Source of the DNA: Candidatus Bilamarchaeaceae archaeon
GTDB lineage: Archaea > Micrarchaeota > Micrarchaeia > Anstonellales > Bilamarchaeaceae
Direction: 5' to 3'
Length of the DNA stretch: 64,000 nucleotides
NCBI GenBank assembly: GCA_038870635.1
Contig: JAVZJR010000002.1
Coordinates: forward strand, 335-64,334
Every line of letters starts with the position of its first letter. Positions within the stretch are counted from its first letter, which is position 1. The position numbers and the translations under genes were made by a program. The notes beneath the pieces are model-generated. The model made no database searches and was not told where the DNA came from. It worked only from the letters and a program-made list of their open reading frames with translations. Of the stretch, positions 24,135-33,212 are shown in pieces.

Positions 24135-25547
24135 CTATATTGCGAGTTTCCTCCTTCCTCCTTTTAGTGCAATTGCAGTAAGGCGCGTGGCGTTCTTTTT
24201 TTCATTTTCTAGCTGTTTTATTATTGGCTTTGGATCTATATACCCCCATAATTTTAGAGCTTGTGCCAACTCTTTATGGGTTTTTGCGTACTTAGGAGCA
24301 GGAATCCCTTCCATAGCTGCTTCTATTGCTTGTCTCATTGAAATCGCACCAGCGCATGTTCCACCAGGATGACCATGAACGCCTGCTCCTGCTTGTATGT
24401 TTGTGTCATTGCCATGTAATGCTATTAGCGCATCCACTCTACCTGCGTCTAAACCACCAGAAGCTATACTCAGAACTGGCTTTATATGAGGCGCAAACTC
24501 CATCGCAAGCGAGCCAAAATATAGTTTTTCTTCTAATTTATATTGATCTGCGATATCATGATATCTCTTTATTATAAGAGGTGTTCCCTCCATTTTTCCA
24601 ACCCCTGTTCCTATGTGTAATTGATCGATTCCTATTAATCTATAAAATTTTTCATATACTTGAAAATTGATACCAAAAGTACCTCTATTCACAGCAGCAA
24701 AACCCGCTCGATGAGCATGCGTCGCGAAGCCATATCTTCTTGTCACCTCTACCACGCTTTCAAGTAAGGCAAGCCCCATAACGTAAACATCCAGCATAAC
24801 TATGACATTTTTTTGCAATCCCATTGAGTTTAGATAATCTATTCTCTCTATCATTTTTTCATATTTATCTGATATGTTGCTTGAATATACTTTATTCTCA
24901 CCTGTTTCGTCCTTTGCTTTTTCTATTGCTTTTACTACTTCGTGTAATCTGTCTTTCCACTTGCAGAAATCTTGATCCACTAGGTTTTCATCATCCTTAA
25001 CTAAATCCAATCCACCAGCATAGGATTCATAAGCTACGCTTGCCCATTCTTTTGGTGCAAGACCAACTTTTGGTTTTACTATTGTACCTACATGTGGTCT
25101 TCTTGTTTTTTGTGTACCAATAATTTTACGCAATCCTTCAATCCCGTGCAACGGTCCTTTAAAAAGTTTTTGATAATCGAGCGGGAAGGATATATCGCAA
25201 ACATATAATTCTTCTAATTCCTTCATTCCGAATATATTGCCAAGCACAGATGCTTGGAATTGGGATATGTTTTTAGTGTCAAAATGTTCGATTGGATATG
25301 CAATCCACACAAAACCAGAGTTGTTTGTCACTTTATCTATTCTAAAAACACGTGCTCTGTATTTTTTCCAAACAAAATCATTCATTGTTTTTAATTTGGT
25401 CCAAGAGCCTACGCTGCTCTCAGCAGCTATCGCTTCTGCTATATTTTCTATATTTGCTTTTCCCTTCGCCCAGAAAAGAACTACAAAATCATTATTTTTA
25501 TTTGGTTTGTATTTTAAGTCTGTATATTTATACCCACCATATGCCAT
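24135..25547 (-). CDS. rbcL: Ribulose-1,5-bisphosphate carboxylase, form III-type
   Basis: Catalytic set present: AESSVGSW, LGNIFG, VKPKVGL, KDDE, HAHRA, LHIGT..GKMEG, SGG, GAGVHGHP. Confidence 0.93.
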   Translation of the reverse strand: MAYGGYKYTDLKYKPNKNNDFVVLFWAKGKANIENIAEAIAAESSVGSWTKLKTMNDFVWKKYRARVFRIDKVTNNSGFVWIAYPIEHFDTKNISQFQASVLGNIFGMKELEELYVCDISFPLDYQKLFKGPLHGIEGLRKIIGTQKTRRPHVGTIVKPKVGLAPKEWASVAYESYAGGLDLVKDDENLVDQDFCKWKDRLHEVVKAIEKAKDETGENKVYSSNISDKYEKMIERIDYLNSMGLQKNVIVMLDVYVMGLALLESVVEVTRRYGFATHAHRAGFAAVNRGTFGINFQVYEKFYRLIGIDQLHIGTGVGKMEGTPLIIKRYHDIADQYKLEEKLYFGSLAMEFAPHIKPVLSIASGGLDAGRVDALIALHGNDTNIQAGAGVHGHPGGTCAGAISMRQAIEAAMEGIPAPKYAKTHKELAQALKLWGYIDPKPIIKQLENEKKNATRLTAIALKGGRRKLAI

Positions 25548-25563
25548 AAAACCACCCTAAATT

Positions 25564-26700
25564 TTAAATTAATTTAACCAAACCTCTTCCAACCTCCGGG
25601 ATGTTGCCACCAAGCAGATTGGTGCTATTGAGTACAAATGTCATAGTTATAATCATTGCGATTAAGGGCGCGATGCACACAGCATTTACCATTGTCTGTA
25701 GTAATATCAGTATTCCTTTGCCACCAAGTCCAAGAAAGTTTTGTATCGCATCTTTATACGCTTTTAAGAAAGTTATACTTTTCGTTACGCTTGAAAAGCC
25801 CCCCCACCCGCAACCTTCTTTTATTTCTGAGAAATCAGGTACGCTACATAGCTGTTCGTAATGTAAATTTATTTGTTCTGGGGTGCAGGTTGCTTGAAGG
25901 GGGTTTTGATAGTTGTGCGCGGTCAGAGAAGTTGTTTCCCATGTAGAGGGAAGACTTATAGAAGAGAACATTACATACGCAGCCGGGAATACAAAATAAA
26001 ATCCAATAGCAGCAGCCATAAAATAAGCTCCAGCTCCTCTTGTTGGCGGTAAAGCGCGAAGTGCGACCCCGACTGTGAAAAAGAAGCCTGCAAATACTTT
26101 AATGAATTTTATTATGTACATCAAAACATAATACGCATAAAGATAGAATGACAATATGCTTGTAACATTTTTTATTCTTTCAGCGATAGGTTTAATACCA
26201 AAACCAGTTGCAAGTTCAGACATGAATATTTCACTATACCAACTTGCTGCTGCATCTACTGGAATACTCAAAACATACAGCGCGTCGAGTGTTCTTATAG
26301 CACAGTTTTTAGTAGGAGAAAGATAAAGATCAATATAATCCGAAGGTGCGCTTATAGGTGCACTTATCTGTGCAGTTGGAGAAAAACAACCGAATGTTGC
26401 CAAGTATGATGTTTTTAGTATTACATCATCTAAAAGAGGTTCTCCTATAGCAATTAGAAACCCTACTACTATAACAATCGCAATCGTTGACATAGCATAT
26501 ACAAATTCAGTTTTTGCTATTTGCTCAAGATTTTTAAGAGAGAATATTCTTGATAGAACTATTAGTCCGGCCGCAGCCACTATAGCGATTCCAGAAATAA
26601 TTATGGATAACGTCATCCAATCTGCATATGCTGACCTCATAAATGTTTGAGCACGCACGATTGAAAAAAACAAAATTAAAAACAAAAGCATTTTTTTCAT
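25564..26700 (-). CDS. Polytopic membrane protein, paralog 1 of 6 (CedA/VirB6-like candidate)
   Basis: Signal peptide; hairpin LSRIFSLKNLEQIAKTE; core GVALRALPPTRGAGAYF..FYFVFP; C-terminal LLGGNIPEVGRGLVKLI. Confidence 0.75.
   Translation of the reverse strand: MKKMLLFLILFFSIVRAQTFMRSAYADWMTLSIIISGIAIVAAAGLIVLSRIFSLKNLEQIAKTEFVYAMSTIAIVIVVGFLIAIGEPLLDDVILKTSYLATFGCFSPTAQISAPISAPSDYIDLYLSPTKNCAIRTLDALYVLSIPVDAAASWYSEIFMSELATGFGIKPIAERIKNVTSILSFYLYAYYVLMYIIKFIKVFAGFFFTVGVALRALPPTRGAGAYFMAAAIGFYFVFPAAYVMFSSISLPSTWETTSLTAHNYQNPLQATCTPEQINLHYEQLCSVPDFSEIKEGCGWGGFSSVTKSITFLKAYKDAIQNFLGLGGKGILILLQTMVNAVCIAPLIAMIITMTFVLNSTNLLGGNIPEVGRGLVKLI
26663..26700. repeat. 38-bp near-identical repeat encoding the signal peptide of paralog 1; second copy at 31798-31835 (paralog 5)
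   Basis: gaaaaaaacaaaattaaaaacaaaagc(a/g)tttttttcat, 1 mismatch. Confidence 0.9.
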
Positions 26701-27761
26701 TATATCAGCCTCATAAATGAACTCAAATCAACTTCCTCGCCTAAAGACTTACTCAAACCGCGCGCCGTCTGCACAAAAATAAAAGTATTGAATAGCGGAA
26801 TCATAACACCAATCAGAAAAGCTCGCGCTATTATTCCTGAAGCAAAAGCAACTACTGTGAAAAATAGTGAGCCAAAGAAATTTTGTATGAATTTATAAAT
26901 CATAAAAACTGGAGAGAATATGAGCGTCCATATAGTTAAATCGCCAAATATCATACTCTTTATTGTTTCTACTGTGTTAGTTAGGTCATTTGTTATGTTT
27001 GCGAGCGTAAGGAAGTTATTAAAAGATGTAAGAGGCCCGTCATCAGAATATAATACGACATAATCCAACGTTATCAATAGCGGAAAAGCGATTAATAAAA
27101 CCGCGCTTATTGCTATTATGCTGCCCCCTACTTTTCGTGTTGGCGTGAAGCAACGAAGAAAAACTCCAAGAGGTAAATAATATTTAAGAAAAGCATCCAG
27201 TGCAAATAGATAAGTAAAATATTGGGCATAATTTACTATATACGCAACCACGAGGGTTATCATTGATGTTCTGAGCAATTGTTTTAGCGGACCTGCTGTT
27301 CCTGCAAGCGGTGTTGATACAAAACCAACTCCTAAAGGCCTTGTGTGTGGATTTGCAGAAGACATAAGATCAATGGGCATATTGTATATGTAGGTTATCT
27401 GTACCCAACCTAAAATATCTTCTTTTACCTTTATGAAATAATCACCTGTAATATCATAAACGTTTTTAGTCGGTGCGGTTCCAGCTGGTATAAAGTTTGA
27501 TGGTACTACTGTTCCAATTGTTATATTATTTAAGGTGCCTACAATCATAACTATAAAAGAGAGCATTATCGCAGAAACAATGAGTTCAGTAAGTTCGAGT
27601 TTTACACTTCCTTTCATTTGTTCATTTCTCCAAAGTGTTGCCCAAATATATACAAAAGCAAGAAGTATGGCAGAGGTTGTTAATGCAAGTGTAGAATTTG
27701 CTATAAGGTCTCCTGGGAAACCAGCCAAAGCCGAATTTATTATTTCTTGAGCAGTAAGCAT
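26700..27761 (-). CDS. Polytopic membrane protein, paralog 2 of 6
   Basis: YIWATLWRNEQMKGSVKLE; GVFLRCFTPTRKVGG..IAFP; LGEEVDLSSFMRLI; stop overlaps next start (TAATG). Confidence 0.75.
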   Translation of the reverse strand: MLTAQEIINSALAGFPGDLIANSTLALTTSAILLAFVYIWATLWRNEQMKGSVKLELTELIVSAIMLSFIVMIVGTLNNITIGTVVPSNFIPAGTAPTKNVYDITGDYFIKVKEDILGWVQITYIYNMPIDLMSSANPHTRPLGVGFVSTPLAGTAGPLKQLLRTSMITLVVAYIVNYAQYFTYLFALDAFLKYYLPLGVFLRCFTPTRKVGGSIIAISAVLLIAFPLLITLDYVVLYSDDGPLTSFNNFLTLANITNDLTNTVETIKSMIFGDLTIWTLIFSPVFMIYKFIQNFFGSLFFTVVAFASGIIARAFLIGVMIPLFNTFIFVQTARGLSKSLGEEVDLSSFMRLI

Positions 27762-27770
27762 TTATTCACC

Positions 27771-28997
27771 TTATATGATTTTTAGGAATGACATGTAATT
27801 AACATCCGCCGCACCTAGCCGTCCTGCAATTTCTCTAGCATAAGTTAATGTTATGAACACTGAGAAGAATGGAAGTACCGCTCCCATAATTACCACATAG
27901 TATACGCTATTCCTAAGAAGATCGTATGTTCCTACAGCAATCACACCGCAAATTAGGGGAATTAATGCCCCTCCACCTAATATGCCGAATGCAAGGGCCA
28001 TTCCAGTCAAGCCAAAAACACCGCTCTTGGCAACAATGTCTTTTAGTTGTTCTAAGTTGTCTACTAGATATGGTTGAAGAAGTTTGTGTGTTTCGTACAT
28101 GATTATAAACATAATTGGATACATAATGAGCAATGCAATCATTAAAGAAAAAAGAGCAACACCAACTTGTCTTGTTTGAGGAAAAGCTCTTAAAAATATT
28201 GATAAGGGAATGAATAATGACCAACTCCATTTTTTTATGAAGCATAAAAGTATACCTTGGGCCAACCATTCACCTAATGCTAAACCCATTGATTGTAGTC
28301 CTATTGAAACAAGGTCAATAAAAGGTTTAAGAGCAGTGCCGAGATTAAAATTATACATAGAACGGAAGTTAGTACCCACATACATTGTTGCAGTGTAAAA
28401 AATGTGTAAAAGCGTGTTGAAAAGAACCATTGCAGTGTAATTTTTTGATATCTCTGCTACCATTAAGCGAGTAAATGCTATTGCTGCATCTATATATGTA
28501 TCTTTTCCATAATAAACTGGATCAGTAGGTGGTATATTGGAAGTTACAATTTTATAAAAGTAGTTTCCACTTGTTATAATCCCTATAATGACAAGAACAT
28601 TTATTATTGTAAACAATATTGTTATCGATTCATTTTTGACAAATACAATTAAGTTAGGCATCTGGAATATCTGCCCTATCATATATATCAATGCTTCAGC
28701 AAAAATCACTATTATGAGAGCAAGAATTGTTAGTTCTAAGTAGTCAAAGAATACGGGGGCCGGTTCACAACTACCAGTGCTCAACGCCGCAAACATTAAT
28801 GTTACGCCACTGCTGGCCGCTGTAACAGTTACGCTTCCTGTTCTTATGAATGCATCTGCTACATTGTTTATTGTATCCACAGTGTCACTTATGAAATTTT
28901 GAAAATCTGATTCTGTCGGCTGGGCGGTTTGTTGGGCATAAAGAGCGCATGAAAGAAAAATTAAAGATATTATAAAAACAAAATTTTTATTCATCAT
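27771..28997 (-). CDS. Polytopic membrane protein, paralog 3 of 6
   Basis: YMIGQIFQMPNLIVFVKNE; SIFLRAFPQTRQVG..IMYP; LGAADVNYMSFLKII. Confidence 0.75.
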   Translation of the reverse strand: MMNKNFVFIISLIFLSCALYAQQTAQPTESDFQNFISDTVDTINNVADAFIRTGSVTVTAASSGVTLMFAALSTGSCEPAPVFFDYLELTILALIIVIFAEALIYMIGQIFQMPNLIVFVKNESITILFTIINVLVIIGIITSGNYFYKIVTSNIPPTDPVYYGKDTYIDAAIAFTRLMVAEISKNYTAMVLFNTLLHIFYTATMYVGTNFRSMYNFNLGTALKPFIDLVSIGLQSMGLALGEWLAQGILLCFIKKWSWSLFIPLSIFLRAFPQTRQVGVALFSLMIALLIMYPIMFIIMYETHKLLQPYLVDNLEQLKDIVAKSGVFGLTGMALAFGILGGGALIPLICGVIAVGTYDLLRNSVYYVVIMGAVLPFFSVFITLTYAREIAGRLGAADVNYMSFLKII

Positions 28998-30322
28998 ATC
29001 AACCTTGTTAATCCTGCGAGTTCGATATCACCGCCAAGTGTCATGGCAATAGAACGTGTTGCGGCTATACTTCCAAAAATACTGAAAATGAAAAAGAAAA
29101 CAGAGAAAAAGGTGATTCTCGCAGTTATGTCTATATATCCATTATCTCTCCAATCATTGACTGTATCGACAGCAATATTGTGCGTGAAGAAATAAGTAAA
29201 CCATTCTAACATAAACTTTCCTGCTTCAACGACAATATTTTCTTTCTCGCTATCTGATGTTTTTGACCCTAAATCAAAACTGGGATTGAGTCCTTTTTCC
29301 TTTATGTATTTTTGTCTTTCATCCGGAGTCATTAATTGGAGAGCAGCATCAACCTCTTGCGTTTTTCCATAATCTTCCAATATTGTTATCCCACCTATAG
29401 TAGTGTTACCACTTGCGTTTATATATAACGTGTTTATTATGGGCGGGTCGTATGATCCTCTTGGATTTGCTTCTGTATTAGAAAGCCAGGTCGGTCGTGC
29501 TTCTTCTTTTATTTTTATAAGCAGCAAGCCACCTAACGCATATATTGATGGGTAGATGAAATAACCAGTTAGGGCTAAAGCCATCAGTAATCCTCCTAGA
29601 CGACGAGTAAATGTAAAAGTTCGAAGAATACCTCCACTTACCAGCATAATTGGGAATACGGCAATCGCGAAATATTTTATTAATATTTCTTGGAATTTCG
29701 TTAGAAACAATATTCTGGTAAGCCATTTGAAAGAGTATTCAATAACTTGGTTTCTTCTTGAGAAAAAACCTTTCCAAGGTACCCACATCTCCATTCCCAT
29801 CTTTTCATATATTGTTTGGATTGTTACAGAACTCTCAGCAATCATAGACGTCCAAGAGTAAGTGCGTAAAAGATTATATCCAAATATTCTTCCTTCTTCA
29901 TAAATTGTTCTTAAATAATAAATAGCAAGACGCAAATGACATGCAGAAATGTTTTCGTAACCATAGATGTTTTGTCCAGCGTTACAAAGGTCTACTTTTT
30001 GTTCTACATAGCCTGAAGGCGTGGGTACCTTTATGTAAGTAACTGTATTGCTTTGTCCGAGATTAAGTGCAGCGCTTGTTATCATTGTGACTATTGGTAC
30101 CAAGGAGAATAACAAAACAATTATTATAATAGAATAGAATATTTCGTAGAGCTCCATTTTTGCCCAGCTTTTTATTTTTTCATTCATTAAAAATGAGCCT
30201 ATTAAGTAGATGATGGACACTATTAAAGTAGCTATAATGAAAAAAACTCCTGTAAGGGCGATGTAATTTTGTAATAGCGCATCTACGAATGTTGCCGTGT
30301 CCATTTCAATCCCTTTTGACAA
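28994..30322 (-). CDS. Polytopic membrane protein, paralog 4 of 6
   Basis: YLIGSFLMNEKIKSWAKME; GGILRTFTFTRRLGG..FIYP; LGGDIELAGLTRLI. Confidence 0.75.
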   Translation of the reverse strand: MSKGIEMDTATFVDALLQNYIALTGVFFIIATLIVSIIYLIGSFLMNEKIKSWAKMELYEIFYSIIIIVLLFSLVPIVTMITSAALNLGQSNTVTYIKVPTPSGYVEQKVDLCNAGQNIYGYENISACHLRLAIYYLRTIYEEGRIFGYNLLRTYSWTSMIAESSVTIQTIYEKMGMEMWVPWKGFFSRRNQVIEYSFKWLTRILFLTKFQEILIKYFAIAVFPIMLVSGGILRTFTFTRRLGGLLMALALTGYFIYPSIYALGGLLLIKIKEEARPTWLSNTEANPRGSYDPPIINTLYINASGNTTIGGITILEDYGKTQEVDAALQLMTPDERQKYIKEKGLNPSFDLGSKTSDSEKENIVVEAGKFMLEWFTYFFTHNIAVDTVNDWRDNGYIDITARITFFSVFFFIFSIFGSIAATRSIAMTLGGDIELAGLTRLI

Positions 30323-31835
30323 TAAACTTTATCAATGCGTTTATAAACGCTACCGTAATGACCATGGATACTGCAGGAGCAAAAAAACCAAAAAGCGATA
30401 TTGTTGCGATGTAGTCTAATATAGTCATATATTGACTAATCATTATGAGCATGATGGTTCCTTCAAATACTAAGGGTTGAAGAGCTATGGAAAGTGTTTG
30501 GGCTGCAGATGAACTAAATACGCCTACAATTTTTGGAATTAGAATTGCTGGCGCGCTTAATGTAAAAAAGTTAACGCCACAGATGTGCGCTATCAGCTCT
30601 ATTGGTTCTCGATATGTGATACCTATCTCGTTAAACACTATTGCGTTTATTATATATGTAAGGGGATAGACAACTTGCAATCCTATAACTATGGCTAAAA
30701 GAAAAGCGCCAGCATCTTTTGTTGGCGGAAAAAAACGTAGGACAGCACCTGCGGGCAAGAGTAATGGCACAACTAGCGCATCTATTATCAAAAGCAAAAG
30801 CAATTGTGCTTTTAAACTTCCCTCCAACATTATAAGGCTGTTTGCTAAAATTCCAGAAAGAGTGGTAAACGTATCCATTCCTGGATAGATTTTATATACC
30901 GTGCTCAGTACTGATTCACCTGTTCTCTTATAAAATGTATTTAGTACAGAAGTGCAGACTTGGATTGTATAGCAATCTGTTCTTGCTATTTCAGTATCTT
31001 TTATTATTTTTTCTAAGATTAAGGCTGCTCCTGCAGGTACGCTGGGAGCTTTTTCTAAACCACTTATGCCGGAGTTCTTCATTAAATTGTTGGCGAACTC
31101 TGTGCTCACCGAGAAAAATCCAAATATAAATATTATTATAAGTATTGCGCTTGTAAGATCGGATAGTTCGACTGTAAGGTATGCTTCCCATTCTGGTACT
31201 TTTAAAACCTTTGAGGCCAGATATGTAATGAGTACAATACAGCCTATCATCACTATTATAAGAGCTAAAATTTGCTTGTAAAAATCAGTAATTGGTATGG
31301 GTATCTGTAGAGCGAATTTTGCAATAACTTCGAAAAGAATTATATATAAAACCGAAGCCATAATAGTTGCAATTATTATTGTTTGTGACCAATCTGTTGC
31401 CTTTGCTCTAGTTTCTGCACCAAAAAGTTGGCCAACTATATATACTAAAGCTGCTGTAATAGTGAGTAGTATTATGAGGTTTAGTAATGAATCTCTAGCA
31501 AGTCTTGCTACTTCAACTATCATTTTGTCAAGTGTTAGTGTCGGTGCTCCACCAGTGACCCAATTAGGCAAGAATGCATATAATAGAATGAGAACAATAG
31601 TAGATACGAAACTTGCAGCTATAAGAGTCTGCGCCCAATTTTGTATTTTTGCTCTAGTTTCTGCACCAAAAAATCCTGCTAAAATATAGGCTGTCGCAGA
31701 CACCACTAAGGCAAGCATAACTAATCCTATCAAAAGTGCCTCTACTGTTCTTGCCCAATCCGTGGCAATGTCTAACACACTTTGCCCAGCCACCAAAGAA
31801 AAAAACAAAATTAAAAACAAAAGCGTTTTTTTCAT
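30306..31835 (-). CDS. Polytopic membrane protein, paralog 5 of 6, with two extra N-terminal pilin-like hairpins
   Basis: Two FGAETRAK..W units, then YLASKVLKVPEWEAYLTVE; GAVLRFFPPTKDAG..VVYP. Confidence 0.75.
   Translation of the reverse strand: MKKTLLFLILFFSLVAGQSVLDIATDWARTVEALLIGLVMLALVVSATAYILAGFFGAETRAKIQNWAQTLIAASFVSTIVLILLYAFLPNWVTGGAPTLTLDKMIVEVARLARDSLLNLIILLTITAALVYIVGQLFGAETRAKATDWSQTIIIATIMASVLYIILFEVIAKFALQIPIPITDFYKQILALIIVMIGCIVLITYLASKVLKVPEWEAYLTVELSDLTSAILIIIFIFGFFSVSTEFANNLMKNSGISGLEKAPSVPAGAALILEKIIKDTEIARTDCYTIQVCTSVLNTFYKRTGESVLSTVYKIYPGMDTFTTLSGILANSLIMLEGSLKAQLLLLLIIDALVVPLLLPAGAVLRFFPPTKDAGAFLLAIVIGLQVVYPLTYIINAIVFNEIGITYREPIELIAHICGVNFFTLSAPAILIPKIVGVFSSSAAQTLSIALQPLVFEGTIMLIMISQYMTILDYIATISLFGFFAPAVSMVITVAFINALIKFIVKRD
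31402..31672. repeat. 25-bp identical direct repeat inside paralog 5 (31402-31426 and 31648-31672)
   Basis: tttgctctagtttctgcaccaaaaa, encoding FGAETRAK on the minus strand. Confidence 0.9.
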
Positions 31836-31838
31836 TTT

Positions 31839-33125
31839 TCACACCAATTTTGACAATCCGGGCAATTCTGCTTCTCCCCCTATGAGCAACGCAATATTTC
31901 TGTACATCGTAACTGTTATCATTATCTCGGCTACTGTGGACACAGTGACAACTACAAACAGTTCTGCTAATTTTACTATTTGATCGGTTAAAAGAGTATA
32001 TATGCTTAATGTCATGCCAACAGGAAATAATATGCTTCCAGAACCAAAAAGATATTTTAAAAATCCACCGCTATATGTAATCATTTCTTTCGTCGCTTGC
32101 CATATCGCATCTAAAAAAGGACCAACTACAGGTATATTGGTGCTTACTTTTACTAACTTATCAACAGCACATAGCATATATTTTGCTGCTTTTGCCAAAT
32201 TTGAATCACTGTCTATTATTCCGCATGCATTTTTAGCCGCACTTGCAGCTTCTGCTCCTTTTTCACTTCCCATCTTTTCTTGAATGGCTTGGTCCTTGTT
32301 TTTGATATCATTTATCATATTATTTATATCACTTTGACTCATTTGTGTTTTGAACGGACTAGCTTGTTCGATATAGTTGTAATCAAACTTTAATCCGTAA
32401 ACATCAAATATTGTATAGAAAGAAAGCATTACTGCAAGAGGATATACAAAATATAATGCAAAACAAACTGCTATTATTGTTGAACCAGTAGTTCTTGTGA
32501 AAGGATTCGACCGCAGTACTATGCCAAATGGGAGTAGTACGAGAGGTATAACATTTTTAACAAAAATCATAAGAAGGCTTTTTCCCCATACAGCTAGTAC
32601 AAGTAAGCCGACACCGTCTACGACAGTAGTGAGCGCGTTGCTTATTAGTCCTATTCCACCATATGGTGCGATGTAAAGTGAAAATAAACCGATGCCGCCA
32701 GGCAGTGTCCCGAGGTTAAAGCTTAGTGTTGACATAAAACCCAAAAAGAAGTCTATAAGAGCCAATCTTAGATAAAGCGAAAATAATTCATTTCTAAATA
32801 CTTCTAATTGTAATAATGCCAGATTGATATGGCCAATTGGCAAGCCCTTAAACATACCGCTTTGCACTTCGGCTGTATTTATCAACGCAGATATAACATT
32901 AAACAAAAAGCTATCAAAGCTTAACCAAAAAAGTATTATTACTAAAGAAAAAATGAATGCTGCTATATTTTCCTGTGCTAATGCTTTGTGATCAGGATGT
33001 TGAGTAATCGAAGCAAAAATATAAAACATTAAAGCAAGCGCTATTGAAATTACTAGGCAAATGCCTATTATTTGCCATGCTCCGGTTGGCAATGACATTA
33101 GTATTAATGGGAACGACAGTAACAT
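31839..33125 (-). CDS. Polytopic membrane protein, paralog 6 of 6 (first in operon)
   Basis: YIFASITQHPDHKALAQE; GIVLRSNPFTRTTG..FVYP; IGGEAELPGLSKLV. Confidence 0.75.
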   Translation of the reverse strand: MLLSFPLILMSLPTGAWQIIGICLVISIALALMFYIFASITQHPDHKALAQENIAAFIFSLVIILFWLSFDSFLFNVISALINTAEVQSGMFKGLPIGHINLALLQLEVFRNELFSLYLRLALIDFFLGFMSTLSFNLGTLPGGIGLFSLYIAPYGGIGLISNALTTVVDGVGLLVLAVWGKSLLMIFVKNVIPLVLLPFGIVLRSNPFTRTTGSTIIAVCFALYFVYPLAVMLSFYTIFDVYGLKFDYNYIEQASPFKTQMSQSDINNMINDIKNKDQAIQEKMGSEKGAEAASAAKNACGIIDSDSNLAKAAKYMLCAVDKLVKVSTNIPVVGPFLDAIWQATKEMITYSGGFLKYLFGSGSILFPVGMTLSIYTLLTDQIVKLAELFVVVTVSTVAEIMITVTMYRNIALLIGGEAELPGLSKLV

Positions 33126-33212
33126 AATTACCTTGTTTTATTATATTATGGCTACAAATAAAAATATATGTAATTTAAGTTTTAATGAACAAATATTTCG
33201 AGCGGGATTTTT

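Follow-up and report, generated by a model that had tools for sequence, protein, structure and literature searches.

We examined a 64,000-nucleotide (nt) stretch of the genome of a Candidatus Bilamarchaeaceae archaeon of the phylum Micrarchaeota (assembly GCA_038870635.1, contig JAVZJR010000002.1, positions 335 to 64,334), hereafter termed the window. An earlier note on this DNA had proposed that positions 25564-33125 hold an operon of six related membrane proteins that might form a transfer channel. The open reading frame (ORF) listing bore out six neighboring, tightly packed minus-strand ORFs of 353 to 509 amino acids (aa), which we term M1 to M6. From M1 to M6, the intergenic spacings are +3, −17, −4, +9, and −1 nt. 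Four of these five agree with the note, while the fourth was given as 10 nt but measures +9 nt.

Each gene represents the subfamily of its position in the array, and the core motifs described in the note are present in all six proteins. M1 (31839-33125; 428 aa; position 1) has five predicted transmembrane (TM) helices, the core motif GIVLRSNPFTRTTG, and the C-terminal tail IGGEAELPGLSKLV. M2 (30306-31835; 509 aa; position 2) consists of a signal peptide, two VirB2-like pilin domains, and a five-TM core with the motif AVLRFFPPTKDAG, and it lacks the tail. M3 (28994-30322; 442 aa; position 3) carries the core motif GGILRTFTFTRRLGG and the tail LGGDIELAGLTRLI; an alternative ATG 6 codons downstream gives a 436-aa form, as in public databases. 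M4 (27771-28997; 408 aa; position 4) has a signal peptide, the core motif SIFLRAFPQTRQVG, and the tail LGAADVNYMSFLKII. M5 (26700-27761; position 5), at 353 aa the shortest of the six, has the core motif GVFLRCFTPTRKVGG and the tail LGEEVDLSSFMRLI. M6 (25564-26700; 378 aa; position 6) has a signal peptide, the core motif GVALRALPPTRGAG, and the tail LGGNIPEVGRGLVKLI.

The pairwise identity among M1 to M6 is only 17-21%, and phmmer matches between them, while collinear, have low bit scores. These low values favor a reading in which the six ORFs form no real family, their likeness being chance hydrophobic similarity or the ORFs themselves spurious. Profile searches speak against it. We built a hidden Markov model (HMM) from 60 M3 orthologs only (alignment A2) and searched it against every ORF of 60 aa or longer in this genome (n = 2,157). 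It recovered exactly 13 family members (E-values of 1e-162 to 2.9e-6), which comprise M1 to M6, the six genes of a second array, and a lone gene, the singleton. M1 was matched at an E of 6.7e-18, and cross-paralog E-values ranged from 1e-6 to 1e-18 with no false matches in the genome. After the 13 members, this HMM matched two VirB2-like pilins (E of 1.4e-3) and nothing more up to an E of 10. When 1.84 billion proteins were searched with a 33-member family profile, 3,409 cluster representatives passed E <= 1e-3, the best 150 of which were listed. Homologs of M3 (n = 97) were all unnamed Micrarchaeota proteins, and the array homologs were all annotated as hypothetical. Orthologs of each array position are conserved throughout the phylum, and the AlphaFold2 (AF2) models of M3 (predicted local distance difference test [pLDDT] of 83.6 and predicted template modeling score [pTM] of 0.79) and M5 (pLDDT of 87.5 and pTM of 0.80) are both confident. 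Given the 13 members found genome-wide by the M3 model, the six are paralogs of one polytopic family, as the note had held. The no-family reading is refuted by the profile search, the 3,409 representatives, and the position-wise tree, and we give it practically no credence.

We placed 43 proteins of six genomes in a maximum-likelihood tree, in which grouping followed array position and not genome. Seven label changes were needed versus a minimum of 6, compared to a mean of 28.8 for shuffled labels, and 0 of 200 shuffles came as low. Position-specific tail variants are kept throughout the six genomes, and position 2 is without a tail in every genome examined. The six subfamilies are ancient, and their gene order is conserved. 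All six members named in the note are real, but the set is incomplete, as the second array and the singleton lie outside the window on another contig of this genome, C1. The singleton is found at C1:199673-200692. The second array (C1:223624-230968) encodes proteins of 430, 323, 692, 320, 348, and 328 aa with the same position-specific tails. Directly after it comes a Cys-rich lipoprotein of 1,507 aa, and the locus as a whole spans C1:223624-235491. The second array is orthologous to the array of another Anstonellales cluster, L011, which has a 1,431-aa protein. From this orthology in the tree, the six subfamilies already existed when the array was duplicated as a whole.

We read the anatomy of the proteins from the 33-member alignment and the two AF2 models. 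TM1 and TM2 form a long helical hairpin, and the short basic loop that joins them holds a near-invariant E (“AK-x-E”). Between TM2 and TM3, the outer region is variable and in many members bears Cys pairs or N-x-S/T sequons. TM3 and TM4 form a second hairpin, the cytoplasmic turn of which carries a near-invariant LR-x-FP-x-TR-x-x-GG motif. A second variable outer region follows, then TM5, and then a short tail, modeled at low confidence, of the form LGG-x-[DE]-x-x-x-L-x-[KR]-L-[IV]. The note had described a C-terminal “LGG-x-x-[ED]...L-x-[KR]-L-[IV]” tail for all but one of the members, which holds; M2 is the exception. M2 has four helices beyond the common five, and these come from its two fused pilin domains.

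By hydropathy and charge analysis, the TM1-2 and TM3-4 loops are short and basic, and the other loops are long and bear Cys residues or sequons. Signal peptides are predicted for M2, M4, and M6. Taken together, these features predict that the chain starts on the periplasmic side, crosses the membrane in five TM helices with a large loop outside, and ends in the cytoplasm. In this orientation, the conserved positions would all be on the cytoplasmic face and the variable parts outside. As a prediction, this is the topology of the VirB6/CedA/TedA class (N-out, about five TM helices, large outer loop, and cytoplasmic C terminus). The signal peptides of M2 (MKKTLLFLILFFSLV, 31790-31835) and M6 (MKKMLLFLILFFSIV, 26655-26700) are near-identical, and the mature proteins are only about 19% identical.

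The two pilin-like domains of M2 span aa 19-101 (31533-31781; motif GFFGAETRAKIQNW) and aa 101-182 (31290-31535; motif GQLFGAETRAKATDW). They were matched by a Micrarchaeota pilin HMM, which itself included both repeats, at E-values of 1.3e-28 and 2.1e-29, respectively. The motif of the first domain is the same as that of the free-standing pilins of C1:207057-208208 and of two loci from a distant Micrarchaeia lineage (L003 and L012). The two-repeat fusion is also found in the M2 orthologs of L001 and L002. We know of no prior description of tandem pilin domains fused to a channel-type subunit. The free-standing pilins of this genome are encoded by two tandem genes (C1:207057-207500 and C1:207780-208208). 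Their products are almost the same for ~120 residues from the start, and only the C-terminal ends differ, a pattern that suggests a recent duplication or gene conversion with variable tips.

Across the pilin-like family (n = 84), the two commonest Pfam families at E <= 0.01 were TrbC/VirB2 (29/84) and T4SS_pilin (27/84), and some members carry a precomputed PF04956 or PF18895 annotation. The M2 repeats alone had no Pfam match. When the pilin family was searched as a profile against the PDB, the top match was TrwL, the VirB2 of R388, with an E of 0.1. Like the VirB2/TrbC pilins (PF04956 and PF18895; TrwL, TedC, and CedA1), the C1 pilins and M2 domains have two hydrophobic helices, a short basic loop, and a signal peptide. 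They differ in that most members of the family, including the C1 pilins and M2 repeats, are under the Pfam gathering scores. It is at the family level that the profile matches, signal peptide, and two TM helices mark these proteins as VirB2/TrbC pilins.

The N-terminal hairpin of the M family resembles a pilin weakly but consistently, as had been suggested in the note. An hhalign comparison of the pilin profile with the hairpin gave an in-register match (E of 4.6e-4; probability of 33%), the pilin HMM matched M3 residues 30-84 at an E of 0.007, and the M3-only HMM reached the pilins at 1.4e-3, as given above. The support is weak in each of these three search directions, and the three agree. 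An N-terminal hairpin resembling the pilin has been reported likewise for CedA/CedA1 and VirB6/VirB2 (PMC9905601).

In L003 and L012, one contiguous, co-directional cluster holds pilins, array, and ATPase. The order is two signal-peptide-plus-hairpin pilin-like genes, six M genes, two genes for proteins with two TM helices (2-TM), and a DUF87/AAA_10/P-loop_TraG ATPase, after which come a small helical protein, a Zn-ribbon membrane protein, a coiled-coil protein, and a large membrane protein. For the cluster ATPase, the NCBIfam matches to CedD, CedB, and VirB4-like conjugation ATPases rank above those to HerA repair helicases. In L003 (15822-18965), the ATPase has a LAGLIDADG intein directly after the P-loop (GAGKS); the L012 ortholog (502 aa) is without the intein. 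In other Micrarchaeota, the array adjoins the 2-TM partner genes in 8 of 9 checked genomes of families f9 and f10 and in the f11 genomes listed. In the lineages with a duplicated array (the order of this genome, f14, f15, and f17), arrays and ATPase modules are dispersed. Thus, the synteny check suggested in the note finds pilin genes and a CedB/VirB4-like module flanking the array in relatives.

We then surveyed 151 Micrarchaeota species genomes for the M family and the 2-TM partner of the ATPase. The M family was present in 135/151 and the partner in 134/151. Both were found in 134 genomes and neither in 16; one genome (89% complete) had the M family only, and none had the partner only. Within family f13, the M family and partner are present in, or missing from, the same genomes. 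By contiguity in L003/L012, adjacency in f9, f10, and f11, and this 134/16/1/0 distribution, the M family is encoded beside a VirB4-type ATPase and a VirB2-type pilin or shares their inheritance. A further pair recurs in G011, G023, G033, G100, G135, and G145, in which a singleton M gene adjoins an extra 2-TM gene that resembles the CedB N terminus. For G145, of family f13, this pair is the whole system in the genome.

The note had found no motor in the window and placed it elsewhere or regarded it as absent. No HerA/VirB4-type ATPase is present on the contig of the window, and the genome check it had proposed located two ATPase modules on C1 (175315-178234 and 385647-391881). Each consists of a 2-TM protein followed by a CedB/VirB4-like ATPase. 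The ATPases have AAA_10 and DUF87 above the Pfam cutoffs, and their best NCBIfam matches are CedB (4.5e-30), VirB4-like CD1110 (4.3e-27), and CedD (7.9e-22), with HerA repair helicases ranking behind. They are thus P-loop proteins of the FtsK-HerA superfamily nearest to the VirB4 and Ced families. Since these matches are far below the equivalog cutoffs, we regard the ATPases as relatives and not orthologs. A 260-aa 2-TM protein matched positions 9-174 of the CedB model (E of 9.5e-5), and the adjacent 477-aa ATPase matched positions 229-549 (E of 4.5e-30). As the two proteins cover successive parts of CedB, the pair is a split CedB-like protein. Repeated pseudo-ORFs with the common peptide-like string FLASYCFLCISNVFYV occur at C1:180600-181060, 204186-204575, 206548-206841, and 218039-218353, and they mark dispersed copies of a repeat element near the pilin and array loci.

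From these data, we consider it probable that M1 to M6, one of each, form the cytoplasmic-membrane platform of a chromosomal machine derived from a type IV secretion system (T4SS). The role would be like that of VirB6 in bacteria and of CedA, CedE, and TedA in Crenarchaeota. Further parts would be the two C1 pilins, the two split-CedB ATPase modules, and the second array with its 1,507-aa lipoprotein.

A narrower possibility is that the apparatus serves pilus assembly and adhesion only, with the platform extracting and polymerizing the VirB2-like pilin for attachment to a host or surface and translocating nothing. The pilin genes are the best-supported T4SS component, M2 carries directly fused pilin domains, and the outer loops are variable and surface-like. 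In addition, the examined clusters showed no gene for a relaxase, a coupling protein, or DNA processing. However, the ATPases are nearest to the DNA-translocating CedB/CedD and VirB4, and characterized VirB6-type platforms serve substrate passage as well as pilus biogenesis. The known archaeal relatives, Ced and Ted, move DNA (PMC9905601, PMC11868833). We therefore think an adhesion-only apparatus unlikely.

Several observations weigh against a T4SS-derived platform as such, first among them the relation of the M family to known channel subunits. Pfam and NCBIfam scans of M1 to M6 returned only noise, with no PF04610 at E <= 1 and no match to a Ced model. TrbL (PF04610) had no match among 110 diverse family members at E <= 0.1, and the family profile found nothing relevant among PDB sequences, TrwI included. 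By sequence, the M family is therefore no VirB6/TrbL member. By Foldseek, the solved VirB6 TrwI (7o3v_G) ranked eighth for the M5 model and had the highest TM-score among the 50 matches listed. This match is weak, as its E of 0.22 (probability of 0.77) is not significant and its TM-scores of 0.31/0.36 are below 0.5. For the M3 model, VirB6 was absent among the 50 matches listed; the structural check thus gave a match for one model but not the other, and the M5 match is only suggestive. The top Foldseek matches of the M3 model were TTYH channels, which had TM-scores of <0.2 and were rejected as long-helix noise. Second, the similarity of hairpin and pilin is weak and lies among hydrophobic helices. 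Third, the window array is unlinked from pilin and ATPase genes in this genome, so its link to them draws on relatives and on co-occurrence, and the co-occurrence counts are partly phylogenetically non-independent. In Sulfolobus acidocaldarius, cedA and cedB are unlinked, and Ced components may be dispersed too.

On these grounds, the six could instead belong to an envelope or transport complex unrelated to T4SSs, such as an S-layer or lipoprotein scaffold or a system for lipid or metabolite uptake. The likeness to VirB6 and pilins would then be one of convergent helical hairpins, and the proximity to envelope genes would be incidental. Such a reading suits the missing significant match to VirB6/TrbL in sequence or structure, the lack of linkage between arrays and ATPase modules in this genome and its order, and the giant Cys-rich lipoprotein after the second array. 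It does not sit well with the near-perfect co-occurrence of array and ATPase partner (134/16/1/0) or with their direct adjacency in families f9, f10, and f11. Moreover, bona fide pilin domains are in frame in M2, and pilins are the only non-family matches of the M3 profile in the genome. We judge a T4SS-unrelated complex to be quite improbable. The T4SS-like identity proposed in the note is thus supported by the gene set, by the adjacency of pilin and ATPase genes in relatives, and by co-occurrence, but membership in VirB6, TrbL, or CedA is without profile support. The M family fits the VirB6/CedA role by architecture and context, with membership unproven.

Compared to bacterial VirB6/TrbL (PF04610; TrwI of R388, PDB 7o3v), the M family shares the predicted topology (N-out, C-in, five TM helices, and a large outer loop) as well as the association with a VirB2 pilin and a VirB4-type ATPase. 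VirB6 itself reportedly has an N-out, C-in topology with five TM helices and a large outer loop, a result ascribed to Jakubowski et al. in 2004. The same topology has been published for CedE (PMC11868833). The M family differs in having no match to PF04610 in M1 to M6 or the 110 further proteins and in the non-significant Foldseek E-value. It also differs in number, as the R388 VirB6 is a homopentamer whereas the M array encodes six distinct paralogs. To our knowledge, neither the LR-x-FP-x-TR-x-x-GG turn nor the C-terminal LGG...L-x-[KR]-L-[IV] tail has a described counterpart in VirB6.

In our model of the T4SS-derived machine, the platform would extract pilin from the membrane and polymerize it, form a membrane channel, or both. 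A hexameric split-CedB ATPase would dock on the conserved cytoplasmic face of the platform. This face would combine the LR-x-FP-x-TR-x-x-GG turn with the invariant E of loop 1 and, except in M2, with the C-terminal tail. The variable Cys- and sequon-bearing outer loops would point to the envelope or host. Because the six ordered subfamilies are strictly co-conserved, we infer that they would co-assemble as a hetero-hexamer. Pilus formation is likewise conditional on this model, as are the direction of transport, a role at host contact, and the cargo, which may be DNA or something else; given the lifestyle of Micrarchaeota, host-derived macromolecules are a plausible alternative. A bolder version, which we offer as speculation and hold to be doubtful, is a near-universal Micrarchaeota machine in which a fixed hetero-hexamer of VirB6-like subunits is matched 1:1 to the hexameric split-CedB ATPase. 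Here, it would have been duplicated into two specialized machines, one with a built-in pilin and the other coupled to the giant lipoprotein, which together would be a symbiont-side conduit by which these cells, poor in biosynthesis, take DNA, lipids, or other macromolecules of the host.

Housekeeping genes flank the array, with aspS and surE divergent upstream and a form-III-like RuBisCO gene, ndk, and L7Ae downstream, and the G+C content is even throughout the array region. The divergent aspS-surE neighbor is kept in L001 and L002, and aspS is also nearby in L003 and L012. When the ATPase was searched by tblastn against plasmids, the 25 best of 382 records held distant bacterial VirB4/DUF87 matches of 24-28% identity. 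Because the plasmid matches are distant, the aspS/surE synteny is kept, and the G+C content is even, an origin of the system from a mobile element appears unlikely. The 87-nt intergenic region between M1 and aspS (33126-33212) is AT rich and divergent, with TATA-like runs and an AGGT 5 nt before the M1 ATG, and it is likely the promoter region of the array. At the other end, the form-III-like RuBisCO gene (24135-25563) begins 16 nt past the M6 stop, with GGTGG ahead and no room for a promoter, and may be co-transcribed with the array in this genus. We rejected rbcL as a conserved last cistron of the array, as it does not follow the array in L001, L002, L013, or L003.

The nearest described systems are Ced of the Sulfolobales (channel CedA/CedE, pilin CedA1, and ATPases CedB/CedD) and Ted of the Thermoproteales (TedA, TedC, and TedB), both of which import DNA (PMC9905601, PMC11868833). 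Like the Micrarchaeota system, they are chromosomal, domesticated, and T4SS-like with no outer-membrane complex, and they combine a VirB2-like pilin with a polytopic protein of five to six TM helices that has a pilin-like N-terminal hairpin (PMC9905601). They also share a HerA/VirB4-clade ATPase, CedB and CedD being the best NCBIfam matches of the Micrarchaeota ATPase. Ced has a duplicated channel subunit (CedA and CedE) and two complementary ATPases (PMC11868833). In contrast, Micrarchaeota have six differentiated channel-type paralogs in fixed order instead of one or two, and the lineage of this genome has the whole array duplicated and a subunit with two in-frame pilin domains. The Micrarchaeota ATPase is split into a 2-TM N-terminal protein and the ATPase proper, and the M family has no detectable similarity to any Ced model in NCBIfam. 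Ced and Ted occur in free-living Crenarchaeota, whereas the Micrarchaeota system occurs in host-dependent DPANN archaea. Ultraviolet-induced DNA import is a feature of Ced and would be hypothetical in the Micrarchaeota system.

A second parallel is the MPF-FATA-type T4SS of Patescibacteria (also called CPR), which is likewise chromosomal, relaxase poor, and near-universal in an ultrasmall, host-dependent lineage, and which has VirB4, VirB6-like, and VirB2-like parts (PMC12102498). It has been proposed to serve the episymbiotic lifestyle (PMC12102498). It differs in being bacterial, and its VirB4 and its single VirB6 belong to recognizable families. The ATPases of Micrarchaeota are nearer to CedB/CedD, and their platform is a six-paralog array of no recognizable family. 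In the full-text literature searched, no T4SS/Ced-like system of Micrarchaeota is described; Ced/Ted and the T4SS of Patescibacteria come nearest. Specific to this window and genome are the dispersed parts, the two arrays and two ATPase modules, the fusion of two pilin domains to a platform subunit in M2, and the evidence for a split CedB.

If the T4SS-derived reading is true, the Micrarchaeota system would be a third archaeal T4SS branch beside Ced and Ted. Its platform would also be the first of VirB6 type made of several (six) paralogs, which bears on how a pentameric VirB6 is matched in symmetry to a hexameric VirB4. The natural fusion of pilin to platform would support the proposal that VirB2 and VirB6 share an origin. 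As to the physical means by which DPANN archaea tap their hosts, a pilin, a platform, and an ATPase are now named as testable candidates. This conserved chromosomal gene set, probably T4SS derived, is present in ~90% of the sampled Micrarchaeota, and existing Micrarchaeota co-cultures allow it to be followed up.

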